A stretch of 63,997 bases of DNA, the filler included, from Squatina squatina (taxonomy: Eukaryota), in the NCBI GenBank assembly GCA_031763465.1. It is 4 parts of 4 records of this genome, joined end to end, with 100 filler letters (N's around TTAATTAATTAA, not from the genome) between each part and the next. Parts side by side here need not be neighbours in the genome. Positions count along the whole stretch, not along the records: positions 51,609 to 63,997 come from JARFOE010000192.1; 3 more parts are not named here. The stretch is one strand, 5' to 3'. Below are positions 51,609-63,997 of the stretch, piece by piece. Under the pieces are notes generated by a model. That model had not been told where the DNA came from, made no database searches, and was given only the letters and a program-made list of their open reading frames with translations. The stretch's first letter is position 1. Each line of letters starts with the position of its first letter. Position numbers and translations under genes: made by a program.

Positions 51609-52606
51609 GTAAACGAACAGTTGGATGTTTTAAAGGAGAAAAAAAAATTCTTTCCTATGTATAAATGGTAAACACACAGGACTAGGCAGTACACAAGTTA
51701 CAGAAATGTGCTGTAACTTGAACTCAACATCAGCGGTTGAGCACATTTGAACTTTGTCTATGGTTTTGAATAATAAATATGGTCATTTAGCAGTTAGAAT
51801 TCTAAAAATACAAAGTCTCCCGGTCGTTGAGAAACAAATCAAATTTAACATTGCAGTTCAAATTATAAGAAAATATCTGTTAGTGTTTTGTGATAATATT
51901 ATCTTGATACTTTATAAAAGAGCAATCATGCAACATCATGCAACAACAGAAATGAAAAAGAATTAAAGGAAAGATAACGGAAAAGCTTAATTCTAGAATG
52001 AAACCTTTCCTTCCTAACGAGCAAATCTGATAGTGTACATTTTATATTGTTACTGTTTTAAAATGTTTTATCGTGATTTATGATATCCTCAAGTTTACAG
52101 TATTGTCTATCGTGTTTTCAAATTCAGTTAAAGTCTGCTGAGTTTGAAATGAAAACCGTGCAGTTCCCCTTTCTTAAGAGTATTTTTTCAGACTAAATAA
52201 AAGCAATTTCAAAAGAAACTTTAAGCTTCCCGTCTTTAATTCTCACATTAACTGAAATATAAAAGCTATGATTTTTCGTTGATAATGGCGTAGTAGCATT
52301 TGTTAAGTGGATTGAAGAGTCTGTAAATTATTGTATGGATTTTGGTCGAATAAAACGTCCATGTCGTATCTACATGGAGTCTGATCACCTACCTTTTGTT
52401 AGCAAACCAGATATTTTGGAGCTCTTTTGAAACATCCCGAACGCATTGGATTTAACTTATCTCTCAAGGATCTGCAACATTCAAATCGGGCTTTAAGTAA
52501 CGAAAATAATTCTTTTGGAACTCTTACTTTTGGATTAGCGATGGACAAAGTATTTTTCCTTCTTGGTTTTTGCTGCCCGACAGCGGCTTTGACATTGATC
52601 TAAATT

Positions 52607-52622
52607 GCGCCACCATGTGGAC
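52607..52622 (-). promoter_or_regulatory. Candidate CTCF site on the HoxA10 side of HoxA11
   Basis: Minus GTCCACATGGTGGCGC fits the CTCF core CCACnnGGTGGCGC. Position matches the known HoxA 10|11 boundary. Confidence 0.5.
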
Positions 52623-55600
52623 TGAACGTCCTATTGAAAGGATTCATTGTCACAACTGCGGTAGCACAAAAACCTAGATCGAACGCAAAAGAGGTATCTA
52701 GAATGTGAGAATAGCTAAAATCGAGTTATTTGATTACGTTCTCCGCATTTGCAATTCTAAATCTACTGCGGTAATCTTGGAAATATGCAGATAGCCACAT
52801 TAAACAGACTTTATGACATGTCCTGCTGTTAGTAACCAGAGCAACAGAGACGAACCCTTGTCATTTGCCTTGAATGCCACAGCCCCATAATCTGGTACAA
52901 CGCTGGTCTCACCTCCCTCTTTCGTACAGCTAAAAGCTACACTCATATCTTTAATCACAGCTAGTATCATTCATTATTAAAAGGACCTCACACGCAACAT
53001 TAAACTTCCGTGATACTAGATCATGACTCGCTAGGAACTCTGCAGTCCTCTTGATCAATCTCTTACAATTTGTATCGGGCTCCCGTCACCCCCGGCGGGA
53101 GTCTAACCAGTATATGGAAGCTTCAGGGCTGATTATCCCTTCACCCCCAAGGTTAGAGGTGACGTCCATGGCGCAACAGAAGTTCAAAGCCAGGAAACAA
53201 GCAGGAAAGCAGAATGCAAACCAGCATTAAATATATTAGAATACAAATGAAAGTTGTTGCAATCACTTCTAAAGTAGATCCCTAAAAATCCAATCAATCG
53301 CAGTGGAATATTTGCCAATCGGAAAGCCTAGATTCGCAATATTATCCAAATTACAGAGTCAATTTTTTGTTTAGACAAAATAAACTAAGTTTAAATTAAT
53401 TCGAAGTCTGACATTCCAACCGATTTTGTCTCTGTCAGCAACATGACACGTTGTGTGGCATGACTTTGACTTGTGCCATGTGAAAGGTAACTGAAGTTGC
53501 ATTGTCTAAAATTTGATTTGAATTTATAGGTTTCCAGAAAATAAACCAAAGAAAAACATACTAATGTATATAGGATGATGTGGAATGTTCTCCAGCTTTA
53601 ATGATTGTTTATTACGTACATGAAACGCACAATAATACAGTACTTTGCAGGTGTTTTAGTTTTCGTCTTGAATACCCGACAAAGTTCAAGAAGCCTACAT
53701 TGATCGACATCAAGAAAAAGCACCTTTTGGTACTTTTCCCACCTTGAATCCCATTGTGCGCTCTCTGAACGTGTACATGCAAATCTTACACCTTTTAGTC
53801 AACTCGATAAATATAAATTATATACAAATGTTAACCAAATGTTGATATCACATTTAATTTAACCGCATTTGATTAAGACTTGCTCTTAAAAGAATTTGTG
53901 TTTCTTTTCAAAATCTAAATGCTTAATGTAAAAAAAACACCACGTTCTGTGGTGCATATTCCAGCCTTTTAATACATTTCAGTGTTTTGCAAATTAAACT
54001 AGAATAACCAAAGAAAGTAACGGCGAGGACTCGACCACTGTCATCTGGCGTTTTNNNNNNNNNNNNNNNNNNNNNNNNNNNNNNNNNNNNNNNNNNNNNN
54101 NNNNNNNNNNNNNNNNNNNNNNNNNNNNNNNNNNNNNNNNNNNNNNNNNNNNNNTTTATGAGAAAGTACAATAAAATCATCTACTTTAATGATGGCAATG
54201 ATAGAGACCACAACGAAACTTTACATTAAATTGGTATAATAAACAAAGCTGTTTTTAAAGGCTGGTATATGTTATCAGGTAACGTGTAGACGATATTTGT
54301 ACAATACGGCCTATATGTATATCGGCCTATAAAAAGCTTATATGGTGAATGTACAGGAAATGTTACCATTGTGCAATAAAACACGTATGTGTTTAATGAA
54401 AATAATTTCTGTCTTTGGTTCACACGGATAAAGATGGCTTCAATATTGTAAATACTGCAGACTTGTCACCTTTTGGAGGAATCCGTGAAAATAATAGATG
54501 CATGAGCAGCAGTTTTTAAACACTATTCCTATTTAAAACTGTCAATACACATTCATATTGTACCAAAAGAGCGATATATTTACAATACTTTGTGCTCAAG
54601 TATGCCATCACGGGTAGCATCTCTTTCCTTTCAAAAGTTAAAAGTAAAAACTGCATTTGCAAATTACGACGCACAATGTGGCAAGTACAAATAAACACCC
54701 ACGGATTGCTTCAGCAAGCACAGAATAGCCTGTTTTCGAAAATCTTAATACTCCAAGCTATGTTTTAAACGGCAAAGTGTTTATATATAGAGCCCCACAG
54801 CTAAAAAGATACAGAATTTTACATTTTAACCAGAATTTAATTACACTTGTTTATTTTGGTGGCGAATATGAATTAAACGCCTTCGATTCCCATTAGCAAC
54901 CGCTTTTTTACTATGAATTTCAGACTGGATATTTACATGCATGCTCTCCGTTTGNNNNNNNNNNNNNNNNNNNNNNNNNNNNNNNNNNNNNNNNNNNNNN
55001 NNNNNNNNNNNNNNNNNNNNNNNNNNNNNNNNNNNNNNNNNNNNNNNNNNNNNNNNNNNNNNNNNATATGCACAAGTTTCAGTATTCTAAGCAGCGATGA
55101 GCAGGCATTGTTTAGAGAATTATCGAGCTAATTTCCCACCTTACGGAAGGTTCAGTTACAAAAGAACGAGGCTGGTTGCTACTCCGTGTAACTGAAGATA
55201 AAAATATATATCCAATAGTTGTGATTGGTAGTGAGGGCCATTGAAAGCTTCCTAATCTAAAGCATGCGCACATTTTATTAGATTATTTTAAAAAATATAA
55301 TCATTTTCTGTCAACATTTTAGTTATATTAGCAGTAAAAATGTTGCCACCGCTCCTACCCAAGCATGGATACTCGAGATGATCAAAGACTGTACTCTGTG
55401 CTGGTGTGACATTGACATATTCACCTGGGACCGTTTTCCAGCCAAGAATCGGTGCTGCGCAGGTAGGGTCTGATGCAACTAAACTCAAAATTGGGCCTCG
55501 GGCCTCGTTTCAATAAGTTTGATGGGGCGCCTGTCTGGCCTCCACAGCTGCCCTCAGCAAAGTGCCGGGAGGAGAGGGGAGGACAGTGGAAGGGAGGTCA

Positions 55601-56899
55601 GGGTGGACAGACTGTGGCCGGCAGTGGCTGACAGGAGAGTTATGGAGCTGAGCATGGAATTTAAAAAATAAATTAAGTTCACCTGTTCTGGTGGTGGCCC
55701 CTTGTAAGGCTACATCCATGCCTAGTTCTGAAGGTTTTTAGGTGTCCTTGAGACACAGGGAATAGTCGTGCAAAATCAGAAATTTTGCCCCCCATCTTCT
55801 GTCCAGAAAACTGGCACAACGATGACCAATTTGTAATGTGAGAAAGGAGACATGAGTCGTTTTTACCTCTCTGCACCAATAGGATACATTTTGACTGGGA
55901 CCAGCTCAAGATGAAAAGCTAGATAGACAGTTACTTAAGCAACTAAAAGAAACTAAATTGTAATGCGATAATTACGGGTATTTAAGCGACCCTGATAGCT
56001 CGGCATGTTCATCCATTGAATAACTGAGGCTCTGCAAGATCTAGAAGGTGCCAGTCTGTCCTGAAACAACTGATCCCATCTCATTGCTCTGAGGTTAGGT
56101 AGGGAAAAGATGGCCACAGCAAATACTATATTAGAGTTAGAAATCGGCAGTCTATTCAGAGTGATTAGTAACCTTGGAAGCAGGCGATTACTTAGATTCC
56201 AGTAATCTCTGAGTGATTTTAAAACCTAATTGAGGCAATGGTTGGAAGTAATGCAGATGGGCAAGAACAAATTTGGAGTAAGGAGGGGACACCTGGCTTG
56301 GGATCCTGCTCTTGGTTGAAAGCATCCAGTATCCACAGGAAAGGATGACACTGGGGAGACATGATCAGATTTGGGTTGTGATCCCCTCCCCGCATGACCA
56401 AATAATTTGCCAATGCTCAAGACTTAGACGTTAGAAATTATAAGATAGGTGAAGTGCCAGAGGGGCACTGGTATCTGTGGAATTGTACTCCAATGTAAAA
56501 GGAGCTGGGGAAGGGAGAAGCAGCATAAACTGGAGAGGGGAAAATTATGTTGGTGCTGTTTCCTTTCCGACCACCAGATGAGAAGATTTGCTCTGTGTGC
56601 AAAATGTAATGAAATCATAANNNNNNNNNNNNNNNNNNNNNNNNNNNNNNNNNNNNNNNNNNNNNNNNNNNNNNNNNNNNNNNNNNNNNNNNNNNNNNNN
56701 NNNNNNNNNNNNNNNNNNNNGTTCATTTTTGTCTGTTCAAATAATTTTTTAAAATAAAGTTAACTAATGACCTCTGATGATGTGGCCGTGACCAGGGGTT
56801 TAAACTGAAGGAGTTGCTGAGCCCGGTGTTCTTAGGGAGCAGGACTGACTCATGCAGTCAGGAACTCCGAGAGCTTCAGCTAATGTCTCACTTATTCAG

Positions 56900-57165
56900 T
56901 ACATAAGAATTAGGAGCAGGAGTAGGCCATACCGCCCTGCGAGCCTGCTTTGCCATTCAATAAGATCATGGCGGAGCTTCAACCTCAACTCCACTTTCCA
57001 GCCCGATCCCCATATCCCTCGAGTCCTTCACTGTCCAAATTTCTATCGATCTTAGCCTTGAATATGTTCAACAACTGAGCCTCCACAGCCCTCTGGGGTA
57101 GAGAATTCCAAAGATTCACAACCCTCTGAGTGAAGAAATTTCTCATCTCAGTCCTAAATGCCAAC
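56900..57165 (-). mobile_element. CR1 LINE 3' end
   Basis: FRTEMRNFFTQRVVNLWNSLPQRAVEA..LN.FK..IDR.L, then a 3' UTR ending ...ttcttatg. Confidence 0.85.
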
Positions 57166-57982
57166 ACCAATTTGACAGAGGGGGCCTAAAGCAGGCATTC
57201 AGCCTGATATATATGTAAATATGGGGCATATTGCCTGTTTTAGGCAGCTGCCAAGGACATCTGAAAGATTAGACGGCAGCGGACATTGGCCTTGTCGTGC
57301 CTGTTTTAAGATTGCAAGGTTCAACTTATATCCCTTAACCTCCAATGCAAATTGCAAACAGAGCATAGAATTGTATTTAATCTTTACCCAGTCCTTGTAC
57401 CTACAATGAGTATGACGATTTGTTAAGAAAGCACTTAAACTCCAAGTTAAATGTCATGTGAAGTGGTTTTGTGTGTACCGGAGTGAATCAGTGCGAAACT
57501 TCATCCGCCACACAGAGTCTCGCTCTGCTTCACTCCAGACTTAGGTTGGGCCTTGACTCCGAATCTCTGTGGCCAGATTACGGTTGATGTGAAGCTGAAA
57601 CCGTTTTATACCAGTATTAAACTTGTAGTGTAAATGCACCCTTGGATTTTGATTTATTTATTGAAAAAAAAAGCCATAAAGAGAGAAAACGTAGCGGGAA
57701 TGAAAGCTCGCTGCTCTCTCTGGCTGTTATAGTGGATGAGAATGAGAGGAAGTTGTATCTCTTAATATCCTGCAATAAAATCCTTTGCACGTGACTCTAT
57801 TCCCTGAATGAATGCACTAAAATGTTCGAAATAAATAGCCGAATTGCGGAATGTTAAAAGCTTACATTCTGGCTATTCTTTGCCGTGGAAGGATGTCGGT
57901 TTTCTCAGAACTACAGTGGTTAAGGATATATTGCAGTGACAGCACTCTGAGCTACGCGCCACAGTCTAACTCCACGAGCGAG

Positions 57983-58200
57983 TCACTCGAACTCTTTAAC
58001 GTGTTCCTTGCTGAGTCTTTTCATCTTCATCCTCCTGTTCTGAAACCAGATTTTAACTTGCCGGTCGGTTAAGTTGAGCATCCGGGAAAGTTGCAGCCGC
58101 TTCTCTTTGTTGATATAGACACTGAAAAAAAATTCCCTCTCCAGCTCCCTGATCTGGTACTTGGTGTAGGGACACCTCTTTTTGCGTGTACGCTGGCCAC
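57983..58200 (-). CDS. HOXA11: HOXA11 exon 2 (homeobox) with atypical C-terminal tail
   Basis: gttacag|[58 protein letters not shown], the canonical A11 sequence, then [16 protein letters not shown]. Confidence 0.9.
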
Positions 58201-59189
58201 CTGTAACAGGTAAACAGTGCGTTAAAACTCTGAGAGTTGGAAATGAGAGGAACCATCATTTTTTTCCGAGCGTTAACATATGCTTTGCTGTGAACACATT
58301 CTCAGGAAAAACTCTCCATGGCTCCTGATTTTCACACGCCGATCTTGGTCAGCAGTACCCAAACTACAGAACTGTTCGCTGCAGCATTAACTCGTTTTTT
58401 TCTTTCATATTGTGAATGGTCCTTGGAACAAAAGATGGCTGCCTGGATCTGCACTGATTCTACTGGTTGTGGAATTCTCAAGTTGACGCTGTAGTACTCC
58501 CATTCCAACGATATACATGAAAGTTACAAATGAGCTTCCCGTAACCAGGGACGAGCTTCAACTTTTAGAAGGGAAATATTTTTGAAAGGTGAACCGTTCC
58601 AGTATGAGCGCATTAAAGGCAGAAAATGGATGAAATGCAAGATGTACAAAGTTTTATTGCATTTGAAAGGGGTTGGGGATAGGGGCACTTGAGCCAGCGT
58701 TTTAAAAGATATTGGGAAGCACGAATTAGTTTCCTTAGGGGAGGGGACTTTATTATGTAGTCATTCCGTGTTGTAAAACTCGACATGGAGCAGCCTTCAG
58801 AAGTAATATTGCAGCGTTCAGACTGCGCTGATCGGATGTCCAGCTATAAAATGTGATTATTAAATAAAATACGGCCGCTCGGTCCTGAAATAAGTTTTAT
58901 GATGGAAAGTTCCACGCTAAAGGTATTCTAGTATTTATGCAGCAGTTAAAAATGTCATTTTACCATATTATGTTTTAAAGCGGTTACTTATGGAACTCAA
59001 TACAACCTATAAATAGAGTTTCTGTGTCAACACGTGTGTTTTATAGAATTGCTGAGCCGTGTTAAGACACGCAAAGATCACAATAGCCAAAAGCAAATTT
59101 TTCATGTATTTACACCTAATAATTTAAATGATCCGATTTTTAACCCCAATCTCACTTTTTGAGGTGCTATTGGAAGTATTTTAATGCAG

Positions 59190-59340
59190 CGATTGGCTGG
59201 AGTTATTTCACGGCCAATTTCAGAGCTGAACACGTGATCTTGTCATTTATGTAAAAAAAAGTTTTGTTGGGAAATCTACAGGCCATCCATAAACCCCCTT
59301 ATATGCTTATAAAACAGCACATAAAAATTTTAACAGCAGC
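59190..59340. promoter_or_regulatory. HoxA11 intronic conserved element with clustered TTTAT (Abd-B/Cdx-type) sites
   Basis: ccataaaccccttatatgcttataaaacagcacataaaa resembles, from memory, the mammalian HOXA11 intron element. A second motif cluster lies at about 58840-58915. Confidence 0.55.
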
Positions 59341-59390
59341 GCGCGAGATCGCAAAACTTTCTCTCATAAGTGGGCACTGATTCTACCTAC

Positions 59391-59995
59391 TGGAGTTGCT
59401 GCCTTTTTCCTCATTGTTGCCGGAAGAAGACTCCGGGCTGCTGCTCCCGGGGCTCGTCTCTTTCTCCACGGACACCCTCGAAGTCTCCGAACTTGAAGTT
59501 GCCGCAGACGGCACTTTATCTGGGCTCTTCTCCCCGCAATACTCCGACTGCTGATTCTCACTGGAACCGTAGGCAGTCTCGAAGAACTGATCAAATCCTT
59601 GCGGCAGGACACCGTTCCTACCCACCGGGTTGTAGAAGCTGGAAGACGCGTTGGAGCTGGGGTGGTAAACGCTGGCGCTATTTTTCATTAACATCTCACC
59701 CATGGTGCTGGCAGGCAGACATTCTCTGTGCATCAGCTCCTCTGCGGAATAGCAATGGGGCAGATTGCCCCTGTGATGCCACTTATTGGAAGGATCGATG
59801 GCATAGTCTCTGAAGGTAACTTCTCGCACAGGTTGAACCTGGGGGATATTAGACGAGTAAGAGTATGTCATGGGGCGAGAAGCCGGTGTTTGNNNNNNNN
59901 NNCAGGCTGGAGAAATCCGGACCCGAGACATAATAGGTGCAGCTAGGCAAATAAAGATTAGAGCCACAAGAAACCCGCTCATCAAAATCCATCAT
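59391..59995 (-). CDS. HOXA11: HOXA11 exon 1 (10-N gap at 59893-59902)
   Basis: [60 protein letters not shown]...[20 protein letters not shown]...SSSPESSSG. Donor a|gtaggt is in phase with exon 2. Confidence 0.95.
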
Positions 59996-60059
59996 CGCTT
60001 TCTTGGGGTCCCCTAGCGCAAGAATAGCTTGCATTCGCACAGCTAAACATGGTCCTTAG

Positions 60060-60300
60060 ATGCTGCTGCCTCTTTGAAGCTGATCCGCGGAGTAAAAATT
60101 TGGAAACGTAAGCTGACGTGGAAATGTATCTCCATACATCGCAGGGNNNNNNNNNNNNNNNNNNNNNNNNNNNNNNNNNNNNNNNNNNNNNNNNNNNNNN
60201 NNNNNNNNNNNNNNNNNNNNNNNNNNNNNNNNNNNNNNNNNNNNNNCGCAGGGACAAGCCAGTCATGTGACCTGCTGCCTGGTGAAATTGACATGCATCA
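60060..60300 (-). promoter_or_regulatory. HoxA11 conserved 5'UTR and proximal promoter (gap inside)
   Basis: Minus tttccacgtcagcttacgtttccaaattt...cggatcagcttcaaagaggcagc and gtcaatttca...ggtcacatgac (E-box) resemble, from memory, the human HOXA11 leader. Confidence 0.6.
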
Positions 60301-63300
60301 CTTTGGATTCCCCCCTCGCACCCGGAGCGCAAATCTCCTTACATCTGAGCTCTGCACGTTTCTAAAGGGGGAAAGGAAAGCTCGAATAATACTGTGAAGG
60401 TGTTCAACCTTCACACCAGACACGCATTTGGCACATTTACTTCACGTCGCTCCAATAAGCTGACTAGAAGCGAGGGTGGACGCAGCAGCAACTGCTAACG
60501 ATTTCCGCAGTGGAAATATATCAAAACCTGTTTCTTTTCTAGAAAGACCTATCACACATGTTTGTTCTGTTGGAATATTGTGGGAATGTTCGGCATTTTT
60601 ATTGGCAAATAATTCCCTTTGCTTTCCCTTACTTGGCATTTTAGTGAGATAAAACCGTGCAACATACCTATTTCCCCTGCACAGAATTTGTGAAATCAGG
60701 GATAAATAATGATCAAAACTCTGTAAGAAATCTTACCGAAATACAGAATGGTGAGAAGGCAATCGTTAAATGGCTAAATCGGGCTTTATATACAATAATA
60801 TCCCCTAACTTCCCTAAAAAAAGACAATGAGAGCACACAATCATCTCTAAACCCCGCAGAGACGTAGGGAAGATAAGTTCGACCGTCCACAATTTCGACA
60901 TAGGCAGAGGCTTGTTTGTGTTTTTGTGAGTGTGTCCATATCGATATAAGATTATTTCTCCCATAAAAACTGAATCTGTACAAATCTGCCAAATGTGTGA
61001 GGTGAACAGGATTTTTTTCTTAAAGTTGTTCTGCTGCTTCTGGCTTGTGGGCAAGCGGGCATGGTCACGTTCAACTCCACCGCACACAAAATCCTCGCCC
61101 TATCAGCAAAATTATATAAATTATATCCGTTTAGGTGGATTTCGAGGAATATGAGCGTTAAAAAAATCCAATGTGCAGCCCAATTTTACATTTAGACAGA
61201 GTTTTTGTGAATGTGTTATTCAAGACAGAACACTTGCCGTCATTCAAAATAAGTTCAGGATGAAACAAACAGAGGTGAACAAAAGCAGGCAAAAGGAATG
61301 TCATTGGCCGTGGACACATTATTTTCATAATTCTATAAAATGTCAGCAAGGACAACTGGATACGTAACCGACTCAGATTTAGATTTTTTTTCAAATAGTT
61401 TAGTTTAGCGAAAGATTTATTCATTATAGAACGTCCAATAAAATGCATTTTATTTAGGTACACGATCACCGTGTAACAAACTCTATAATNNNNNNNNNNN
61501 NNNNNNNNNNNNNNNNNNNNNNNNNNNNNNNNNNNNNNNNNNNNNNNNNNNNCTATAGAAAAAAGTTGAAGTTAAACTTTGCCTTGGAATTTGTCACAAA
61601 TTAGCTTATTGCTGTTCCAAAAATAACTGCGCAGTGCCAAAACAAACAGGTTTCCTGGGAAAAAGAACCTTTGCCATAAACATTTGCCAGAAAGATGTTA
61701 TATTTAAATTAAATTCCACGCACTAAAAATATCTTTACTAGAAACCATTCTAGTTACAAGTTGACAATTTAATCTTGCTTTTTGAATTGCTTCATTAAGA
61801 TAAATGCACAATAACGTTGTGAAAAGTCTGCAAAATGCTTGCATATCAGATTTTATTCATTTTCTGGCCTGCCGTAACCGGACAATTCAATCGCTATAAA
61901 ATAAAGCCAGCATTTGATTATATCCAGTGATTCTGGATACTGAAAACACCGAGAATATAAACGCCATATTTTATAATAAAGCTTGGTAATATTCAGTTTA
62001 AAGACTATTTGTGCACTTCAACCATTGCTCATTACACTTACCCAACGTTTTTATTTAAAGTCTTGCTAGAAAATAAAATGATTTGCATGAAACGGAATGA
62101 CACAGGGAAGCCATAATATGCGAGTGGCTGCAAATTTGACAGTTTAAAAATAAGATATGAATGAAATAGTATAAAATGGCTTTAAAACTGAATAGGACTG
62201 ACTCGCAATCAAGTATGATTAGTAACCTCCGTATGCAAAATTATTTAAGTATGATGTAGAATTTGAAGGTTTACGATTTTGAAAAAGAAAAAAAATCGGA
62301 TAGGACAGTGGTGTGTTCTATCGCTGTATGAATGTGCAAATTCCGACAAAAGTACAGTGTTTTTCTTAATATAATTAAATACAGGGCACCTATGAGAACC
62401 GAAAGCGGTTTAGTTTGACCTGCGGTTTTAATAGCAGCTTTGACAACCAGCTTCACCAGATGCCCGAATAGGCATTATAGTTGACCAGGGTGAGCTAAAG
62501 ACGCCACCTACATGGAATCCCTGACAGTCCCAGCTAACGTGAGCAATCAGGCGTCCCCAAAAAGAGACAAGGACGCGGCCTTTGTCTGTTAAAAGTCGGG
62601 CTNNNNNNNNNNNNNNNNNNNNNNNNNNNNNNNNNNNNNNNNNNNNNNNNNNNNNNNNNNNNNNNNNNNNNNNNNNNNNNNNNNNNNNNNNNNNNNNNNN
62701 NNNNNNNNNNNNNNNNNNNNNNNNNNNNNNNNNNNNNNNNNNNNNNNNNNNNNNNNNNNNNNNNNNNNNNNNNNNNNNNNNNNNNNNNNNNNNNNNNNNN
62801 NNNNNNNNNNNNNNNNNNNNNNNNNNNNNNNNNNNNNNNNNNNNNNTTTCCGATTAAATAAAAGCCGAAAAATGAGCAAAGATCCGTCTTATTTGCTGCT
62901 CCATTTTCTATCCATTTCCCAGTTATCACACTGTTATTGCAGGAAGTATCGCCCTTTTACAGTTGACTTGCAATTACAGATTCTACATCAAATTAACTTC
63001 TGTCGTCATTTTTAGTTTTTAGTTGTAGTCATTTCCAAGAATATGGTCACGGAAAGCTAAAGGGAGGGTTCCAAAAATTAAATATACCTACCTTGTTGGT
63101 GTCATATCAGGCACACACTGCGGGCATTCGGTTGGTATTTGATGTGAATGAAATGTAATGTAAATGCCGAAGTTTAAGGGGATCAGTGAATTATTGCGGC
63201 GCAGGCTATTTTCCTGCAGGAGTCCAACTCAACGGGAGAGATGGGACCCGGATGAAGCTGAATTTCTTCACACTGATATATACTTCGAAGCTTCGCCGCA

Positions 63301-63997
63301 GTTATTGTCAGAAATGAAACTGGATTTAAAACTCTTGTGCTGAAGTTTGAACTTAAAAACAAGCTCAAAATAAGATTGCGGTAAGACAAAGTCTTCACTT
63401 GAGTTATTTGACGACTTTGCAGTTTAAGGATGCACAGCCTGCTTAACATTGAACTTCAACTTTGGAAAATACCGTACACGTAAAAGAAATGTACTTTTTA
63501 AAGATGAGAGTTACACTATGCAAAGTGAAAATTAAGTTATAATGAAAATTGCTTAAATCCAATGTTCCTCTTGAAAAAAAGATAAATAATTGGACGAGCC
63601 CAGCCGACATTTGTAAGTCGATCTTGTTATTAATTGTAATGTAACGGAACAGCGAATGAAAATATAATTCGTCGTGCATGGATTCATTAACTTTAAAGTC
63701 TCACTATCCGCGGGGTAAGAATTAATAACTATATTTGCGGAGAGTACACTTTTATTGTTATCCTCAAGCTATTCAATACGGTATGCAAACCGCCAGCCAT
63801 ATTGTCCTTTACAGGTTTTCCACGAAATTGTATTCACATTAGTTCTTCACTTGCTCCCAGGAATTACACTGCACTTTACTTATCACTCTGCAAATAAAGT
63901 AACATATGTCTTAATTGTGTGCAACCGAAAAAGCACTTCGCTATACTACACCCCAAGCTAAATATTAAATGTGGGATGATTTAATTCATTGCTGCAT

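Follow-up and report, generated by a model that had tools for sequence, protein, structure and literature searches.

The HoxA11 genes of cartilaginous fishes, the HoxB9 and HoxC9 genes of elasmobranchs and the paralogue chimeras that short-read assembly yields through short exact repeats are the closest described counterparts of the locus analyzed here, which lies in a stretch of 63,997 nucleotides (the window) from the genome assembly of the angelshark Squatina squatina (GCA_031763465.1). Chondrichthyan HoxA11 (XP_007898675.1, XP_067858562.1) is located between HoxA13 and HoxA10 and all 15 listed proteins of this type (21 cluster members) carry the same 18-residue end (EKKLNRDRLQYYTTNPLL). 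The gene in the window occupies the same place, its exon 1 is 96% identical over the tested part (residues from 59892 to 59386, compared with P0135) and its homeodomain is identical through RRMK, but the 18-residue end is missing. The window is identical to elasmobranch HoxB9 (XP_041029297.1, CBL59346.1, XP_067825491.1) from helix 3 to the stop codon, whereas upstream of helix 3 it carries the homeobox, intron and exon 1 of HoxA11. Elasmobranch HoxC9 (P0269, P0270, P0299) has in common with the window the PG9-type MKMK motif after helix 3, yet its end, MKKINKEK.. or MKKINREK.., differs from the tail seen here. With short-read paralogue chimeras the locus shares an in-frame switch within a conserved stretch, the loss of the two other arms and a fork in the assembly graphs of relatives; it differs from them in that the fork is known from contigs of related species and not from reads of the sample itself. 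Together, the data indicate that the front of HoxA11 was joined to the back of HoxB9, very probably by the assembler and not by the shark. Literature screened by title and opening of the abstract held no HoxA11/HoxB9 chimera and no homeobox misassembly of this kind.

The part of the window at 51609-63997 maps to contig C192 of the same assembly (1,152,659 contigs), near 12.30 Mb. This locus is the HoxA cluster, with a PG13 homeobox above and PG10 and PG9 homeoboxes below, and beyond the chimeric gene the cluster is normal through HoxA10 and HoxA9. Exon 1 and the homeodomain are both of HoxA11 type and lie between HoxA13 and HoxA10, identifying the front part as the HoxA11 orthologue (Table 1). 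We compared its homeodomain with 267 homeodomains within 314 database proteins. The 41 residues RKKRCPY...LTD were fully matched by 69 of them, every one of which has a PG11 tail, and none of these 69 homeodomains with a complete A11 left part carries a tail that matches at least 6 of the 13 residues found here. In the window the PG11 C-terminus (EKKLNRDRLQYY) is absent from HoxA11, being replaced from 58024 on. Two pattern searches of the shark's own assembly for the native HoxA11 tail found none, HoxD11 being the sole match; searches of this assembly score the best candidates only, and "not found" in them differs from absence.

Table 1. Coordinates of the features at the HoxA11/HoxB9 join, counted along the window
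Feature	Position	Strand	Basis or remark
HoxA11 exon 1, coding part	59391..59995	-	boundaries from the translated window; 10 N at 59893-59902; DUF3528
HoxA11 intron, GT...AG	58201..59390	-	read from the window sequence
HoxA11 exon 2, homeobox to start of helix 3	58057..58200	-	Pfam Homeodomain, E 7.6e-22
Shared helix-3 stretch holding the switch	58025..58056	-	32-bp X2 contig with 0 differences; by protein, anywhere in 58025-58063
HoxB9 C-terminal tail and stop	57983..58024	-	13/13 identical in 15/19 proteins of five clusters
HoxB9 proximal 3' region, likely 3' UTR	57671..57982	-	X20 record 15
Dispersed repeat fragment holding AATAAA	57512..57665		6 other genomic matches, 71-88%
Dispersed repeat	56901..57160		L056, 80% over 262 bases; L053, 76% over 188 bases
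Next contig, possibly more HoxB9-HoxB8 DNA carried by scaffolding	55066..56620		GC 0.437; repeat fragments

A first-pass annotation of this DNA, made from the sequence alone, had described a HoxA11 gene that is normal up to WFQNRRMK and then continues in frame into a foreign tail, with the switch near 58024. Translation of the minus strand from 58210 to 57983 confirmed both points: on this strand the foreign part opens with an M codon at 58024-58022 and closes with a TGA stop at 57985-57983. The switch is located inside one contig (56721-59892 is free of N). Taking shark HoxA11 (P0259) and shark HoxB9 (P0132) as references, 21/21 diagnostic residues before helix 3 are of A11 type, and after helix 3 the 13-residue tail is of B9 type at 11/11 diagnostic positions, a split that lies far beyond chance. 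Given that shark HoxA11 and HoxB9 agree over 13 residues at 58063-58025, the switch is bounded to this interval.

To identify the tail, we searched with the last 40 residues of the chimeric protein and examined the best 120 of 1109 matches. Five shark and ray proteins among the matches listed cover the query fully at 80% identity, and their clusters together comprise 19 proteins. The tail is exact in 15 of the 19, from 14 species; of the other four, one matches at 12/13 residues, one ends in the manner of PG10 and two are alternative isoforms that have no more than MKRL in common with it. Fourteen of the exact-tail proteins are named HoxB9, B9a or B9-like and one Hox-A10-like isoform X2. The next-best tail among the 267 homeodomains is non-elasmobranch and reaches 6/13. 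Furthermore, the HoxB9 names are backed by exon 1 of these proteins, which matches the angelshark HoxB scaffold at a site flanked by HoxB8 and HoxB10. On the evidence of sequence, the tail is the ordinary, already annotated C-terminus of elasmobranch HoxB9. The first-pass annotation had not recognized it as HoxA9, HoxB9 or HoxD9 and had taken it to expose a second, divergent gene, with HoxC9/C10 type as a candidate; the exact match to the known HoxB9 end of sharks and rays overturns both statements and leaves no novelty in the second gene. The record named Hox-A10-like isoform X2 (P0014) is a shark model combining a PG10-type first part with the second exon of HoxB9, a predicted HoxB10-to-HoxB9 splice.

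The DNA on the 3' side of the switch aligns with X20 record 15 (presumed RNA), which covers 57671-58054 and differs there at 27 letters and by 6 gaps. Within the tail, 4/4 of the listed differences between this record and the window are synonymous. Past 57671 the record diverges from the window and extends for about 900 more bases. A single full-length copy of 57400-58020 is present in the shark's own assembly, and the tail DNA was found once. The AATAAA reported at 57653-57658 on the minus strand is indeed present; lying at the margin of a dispersed repeat and beyond the point where record 15 diverges, it has no support as a functional signal. The second dispersed repeat in the table is presumably SINE-like.

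The proposal that the misjoin brought to light a HoxC9/C10-like remnant, or some other posterior Hox gene not known before, as the owner of the tail has next to no probability left. Within the parts of the sources drawn on here, HoxC9 is found in two shark species (PMC13097845) and listed for the white shark and the sharpnose sevengill shark (10.1101/2025.02.26.637739), and HoxC clusters are described as repeat-invaded (10.1101/2025.06.08.657570). Elasmobranch HoxC genes that are variable and invaded by repeats, as these passages have it (PMC13097845, 10.1101/2025.06.08.657570), would suit such a remnant, and the DNA behind the tail does hold repeats. Against this, the tail is exact to HoxB9 proteins of 14 species whose naming has the support of exon 1, the listed differences between tail and relative are synonymous only, as in a conserved gene, elasmobranch HoxC9 ends differently, so that the tail fails as HoxC9, and the shark's own HoxC9 is located elsewhere, in three small contigs. 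The first of these (L063, C916280) is HoxC9 exon 1, with the HoxC9 of two sharks as best matches (67% and 52%), the second (L073, C1053644) is the start of HoxC9 exon 2 and the third (L038, C1024043) carries a HoxC9-type tail (MKKINKEKTDKS), the latter two matching shark HoxC9 and not HoxB9. We infer that the three pieces make up one HoxC9 gene. L073 had been considered as exon 2 of HoxB9 and was dropped since it reads NWIHARS like HoxC9. HoxC10 was also dropped as the source of the tail, as the 13/13 match to HoxB9 leaves nothing to explain and the PG10 tails seen begin with LKKM, unlike this one. Exon 1 of this HoxC9 includes a run of glycines, and a GT-type microsatellite follows the stop. 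Further homeoboxes were seen on the small contigs of L014 (C778479), L039 (C155860) and L040 (C647306), which we take to resemble HoxC13, HoxC12 and a PG6/7 gene without a place in a cluster; the species may keep a fairly full HoxC set.

The first-pass annotation had favored a misjoin through helix-3 DNA common to both genes, and that part of its reading is supported by a fork in the assembly graphs of relatives and by recurrent class-mixed homeoboxes in the angelshark assembly, even though the HoxC9/C10-like second gene it attached to the misjoin proved to be HoxB9. The fork evidence consists of contigs from 8 of 24 listed runs, all of related species and passed through a filter that drops some records; none of the listed runs is of S. 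squatina, the best share of words being 0.23, and none is recorded as RNA. In X2, record 13 is a 32-bp contig that matches 58025-58056 with 0 differences at a depth of 26.8, versus 15.9-18.4 for the three long adjoining contigs. HoxA11 contigs stop at 58027 in X1, X12 and X2, and contigs of relatives span the homeobox into the intron without a break (58027-58694 and 58027-58679; records 8 and 17). A 28,748-base HoxA11 contig (X17 record 4) runs through the stretch and leaves the window at 58025, where its exit letters, a consensus of two contigs with an agreement of 0.82, hand-translate to EKKLNRDRLQ. Both exits are seen in X20: records 15 and 18 start on the same 30 bases (58054-58025) and part at 58024, record 15 continuing into the tail and UTR and record 18 into EKKLNRDRLQ (hand-translated). 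These contigs show that 58025-58056 is a shared node in the assembly graphs of relatives from which the PG11 tail and the HoxB9-type tail both leave; in relatives, the switch falls inside an exact stretch common to the two loci. A PG9 contig reading YEVARVLNL (X18 record 7) also stops at 58025, and a third gene may share the node. X12 record 16 (58003-58069) was considered as HoxB9 and rejected, for it stops at 58003 and the reading of the similar X20 record 16, EVARVLNLTE...RPKDDR-stop, belongs to a different PG9 gene, presumably HoxA9. No contig bridging HoxA11 DNA to the tail DNA was seen in the listed pieces of the 8 runs, a result that weighs little alone given the filter. The contig of tail and UTR is found in X20 only, the filtered records of the other seven runs having no cover there; none of the relatives' contigs seen joins HoxB9 helix 1-2 DNA to the UTR, and annotated proteins provide this link.

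Class mixing at helix 3 was found in 4 of the 26 homeoboxes with a readable helix 3 (30 loci were taken), namely L008 (the HoxA11 gene of the window), L015, L030 and L035, and the error type is thus a recurring one in this assembly. At L015 (also L051; C100:9203585-9203800), a PG13 homeodomain gives way at helix 3 to a PG4 tail (compare L014 and L057). The join leads from HoxD13 into a Hox4 tail and the scaffold reaches HoxD3 20 kb further on. The homeoboxes of D12, D11, D10, D9 and D8 are found on separate contigs of 0.9-2.5 kb, D11 matching named proteins and D12, D10, D9 and D8 being presumed identities; their lack on the L015 scaffold could be misread as a deletion. L030 (C19:1508911) combines an NKX3-type homeodomain with an Msx-type tail (compare L033, L026 and L028) and L035 (C189:5852915) a TLX-type homeodomain with an HMX-type tail (compare L037), the family names at L015, L030 and L035, TLX included, being mostly our assumption. 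When helix-3 sequences of the angelshark genome are compared in pairs, 16 of 496 share an exact match of at least 20 bases, indicating that forks at helix 3 need no special cause. Unrelated homeoboxes share up to 29 bases, and gene conversion is therefore not required to account for the shared stretch. Judging from the sequences at the L015 join, PG13 and PG4 would share about 21 bases at most; because the stretch there is no longer, the assembler likely joins on matches of about 21 bases.

We propose that, in a gappy assembly, the assembler reached the shared helix-3 stretch from the HoxA11 side and would have left it along HoxB9, losing the genuine HoxA11 tail as well as the front of HoxB9 exon 2, and that scaffolding may then have placed HoxB DNA, at least 350 bases and perhaps 3 kb of it, within the HoxA cluster. 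In the animal itself, HoxA11 and HoxB9 are both likely to be normal. A true recombinant, in which ectopic recombination or gene conversion through helix-3 DNA gave HoxA11 the tail and 3' region of HoxB9, is very unlikely. The join is in frame and within one contig, searches of the assembly did not recover the native HoxA11 tail and the fork is known from relatives, with no run of the species itself among those listed, all of which a recombinant would accommodate. However, the HoxA11 tail is invariant in the 15 listed chondrichthyan proteins, the HoxA cluster continues normally to HoxA10 and HoxA9, a copy event should have left a second HoxB9 tail where only one was found, the three other class-mixed homeoboxes would each require an event of their own and the graphs of relatives fork at this site. 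Were the join real, it would represent a natural tail swap between Hox clusters in a lineage with an invariant HoxA11 end, giving a protein with HoxA11-like DNA binding, lacking the PG11 C-terminal motif and under HoxB9 3' control, and the role of that motif would become testable. An artefact of another origin, a chimeric library molecule formed by a template switch in amplification that seeded the contig, is still less probable. The shared stretch of 30-32 bases could prime such a switch, and odd single changes in helix 3 (WFQTRR, WFQHRR, QVQIWF) are as expected at low depth, but four helix-3 chimeras, each displacing the native path, would better fit systematic behavior of the assembler. Under the preferred explanation, a misjoin by the assembler, the odd ending of HoxA11 is not a new gene and very probably not the product of a real fusion. 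The two genes it combines are ordinary and already annotated, and the join has no significance as biology. Since homeobox genes are joined at helix 3 in 4/26 cases, caution is needed regarding the Hox content of this assembly: without reads, neither unusual homeodomain tails nor seeming losses of Hox genes nor the order of these genes can be relied on.

The HoxB9 locus of the angelshark itself is fragmented. Exon 1, flanked by HoxB8 and HoxB10, lies at C235:435253-435363, where it begins at 435363, and has its continuation on C890489; it is followed in the HoxB scaffold by gaps of 3632, 401 and 3006 N. The front of HoxB9 exon 2 (helix 1-2) was not among 53 matches in the assembly. HoxB9 helix-3 DNA was likewise not found there, and how far it matches HoxA11 is judged from relatives. 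No end overlap of at least 10 bases was detected between the contigs of the window and the HoxA and HoxB contigs tested. HoxB9 DNA extends at least to 57671 and may extend to 55066, as the GC content is 0.42-0.45 over 55066-57982 versus 0.34-0.36 over 51609-54954 and as the interval 55066-58024, at 2959 bases, has nearly the size of the 3006-N gap. The contig at 55066-56620, of higher GC and with repeat fragments, sits inside the HoxA11-HoxA10 interval.

At L030, the DNA of the Msx-type tail is unlike that of L026 and L028, and this tail may come from a third Msx gene. Odd helix-3 residues were seen at L024, L038, L027 and L031 (WFQTRR, WFQHRR, QVQIWF and WLQNMR), some of which may be base errors at a motif that is hard to assemble.
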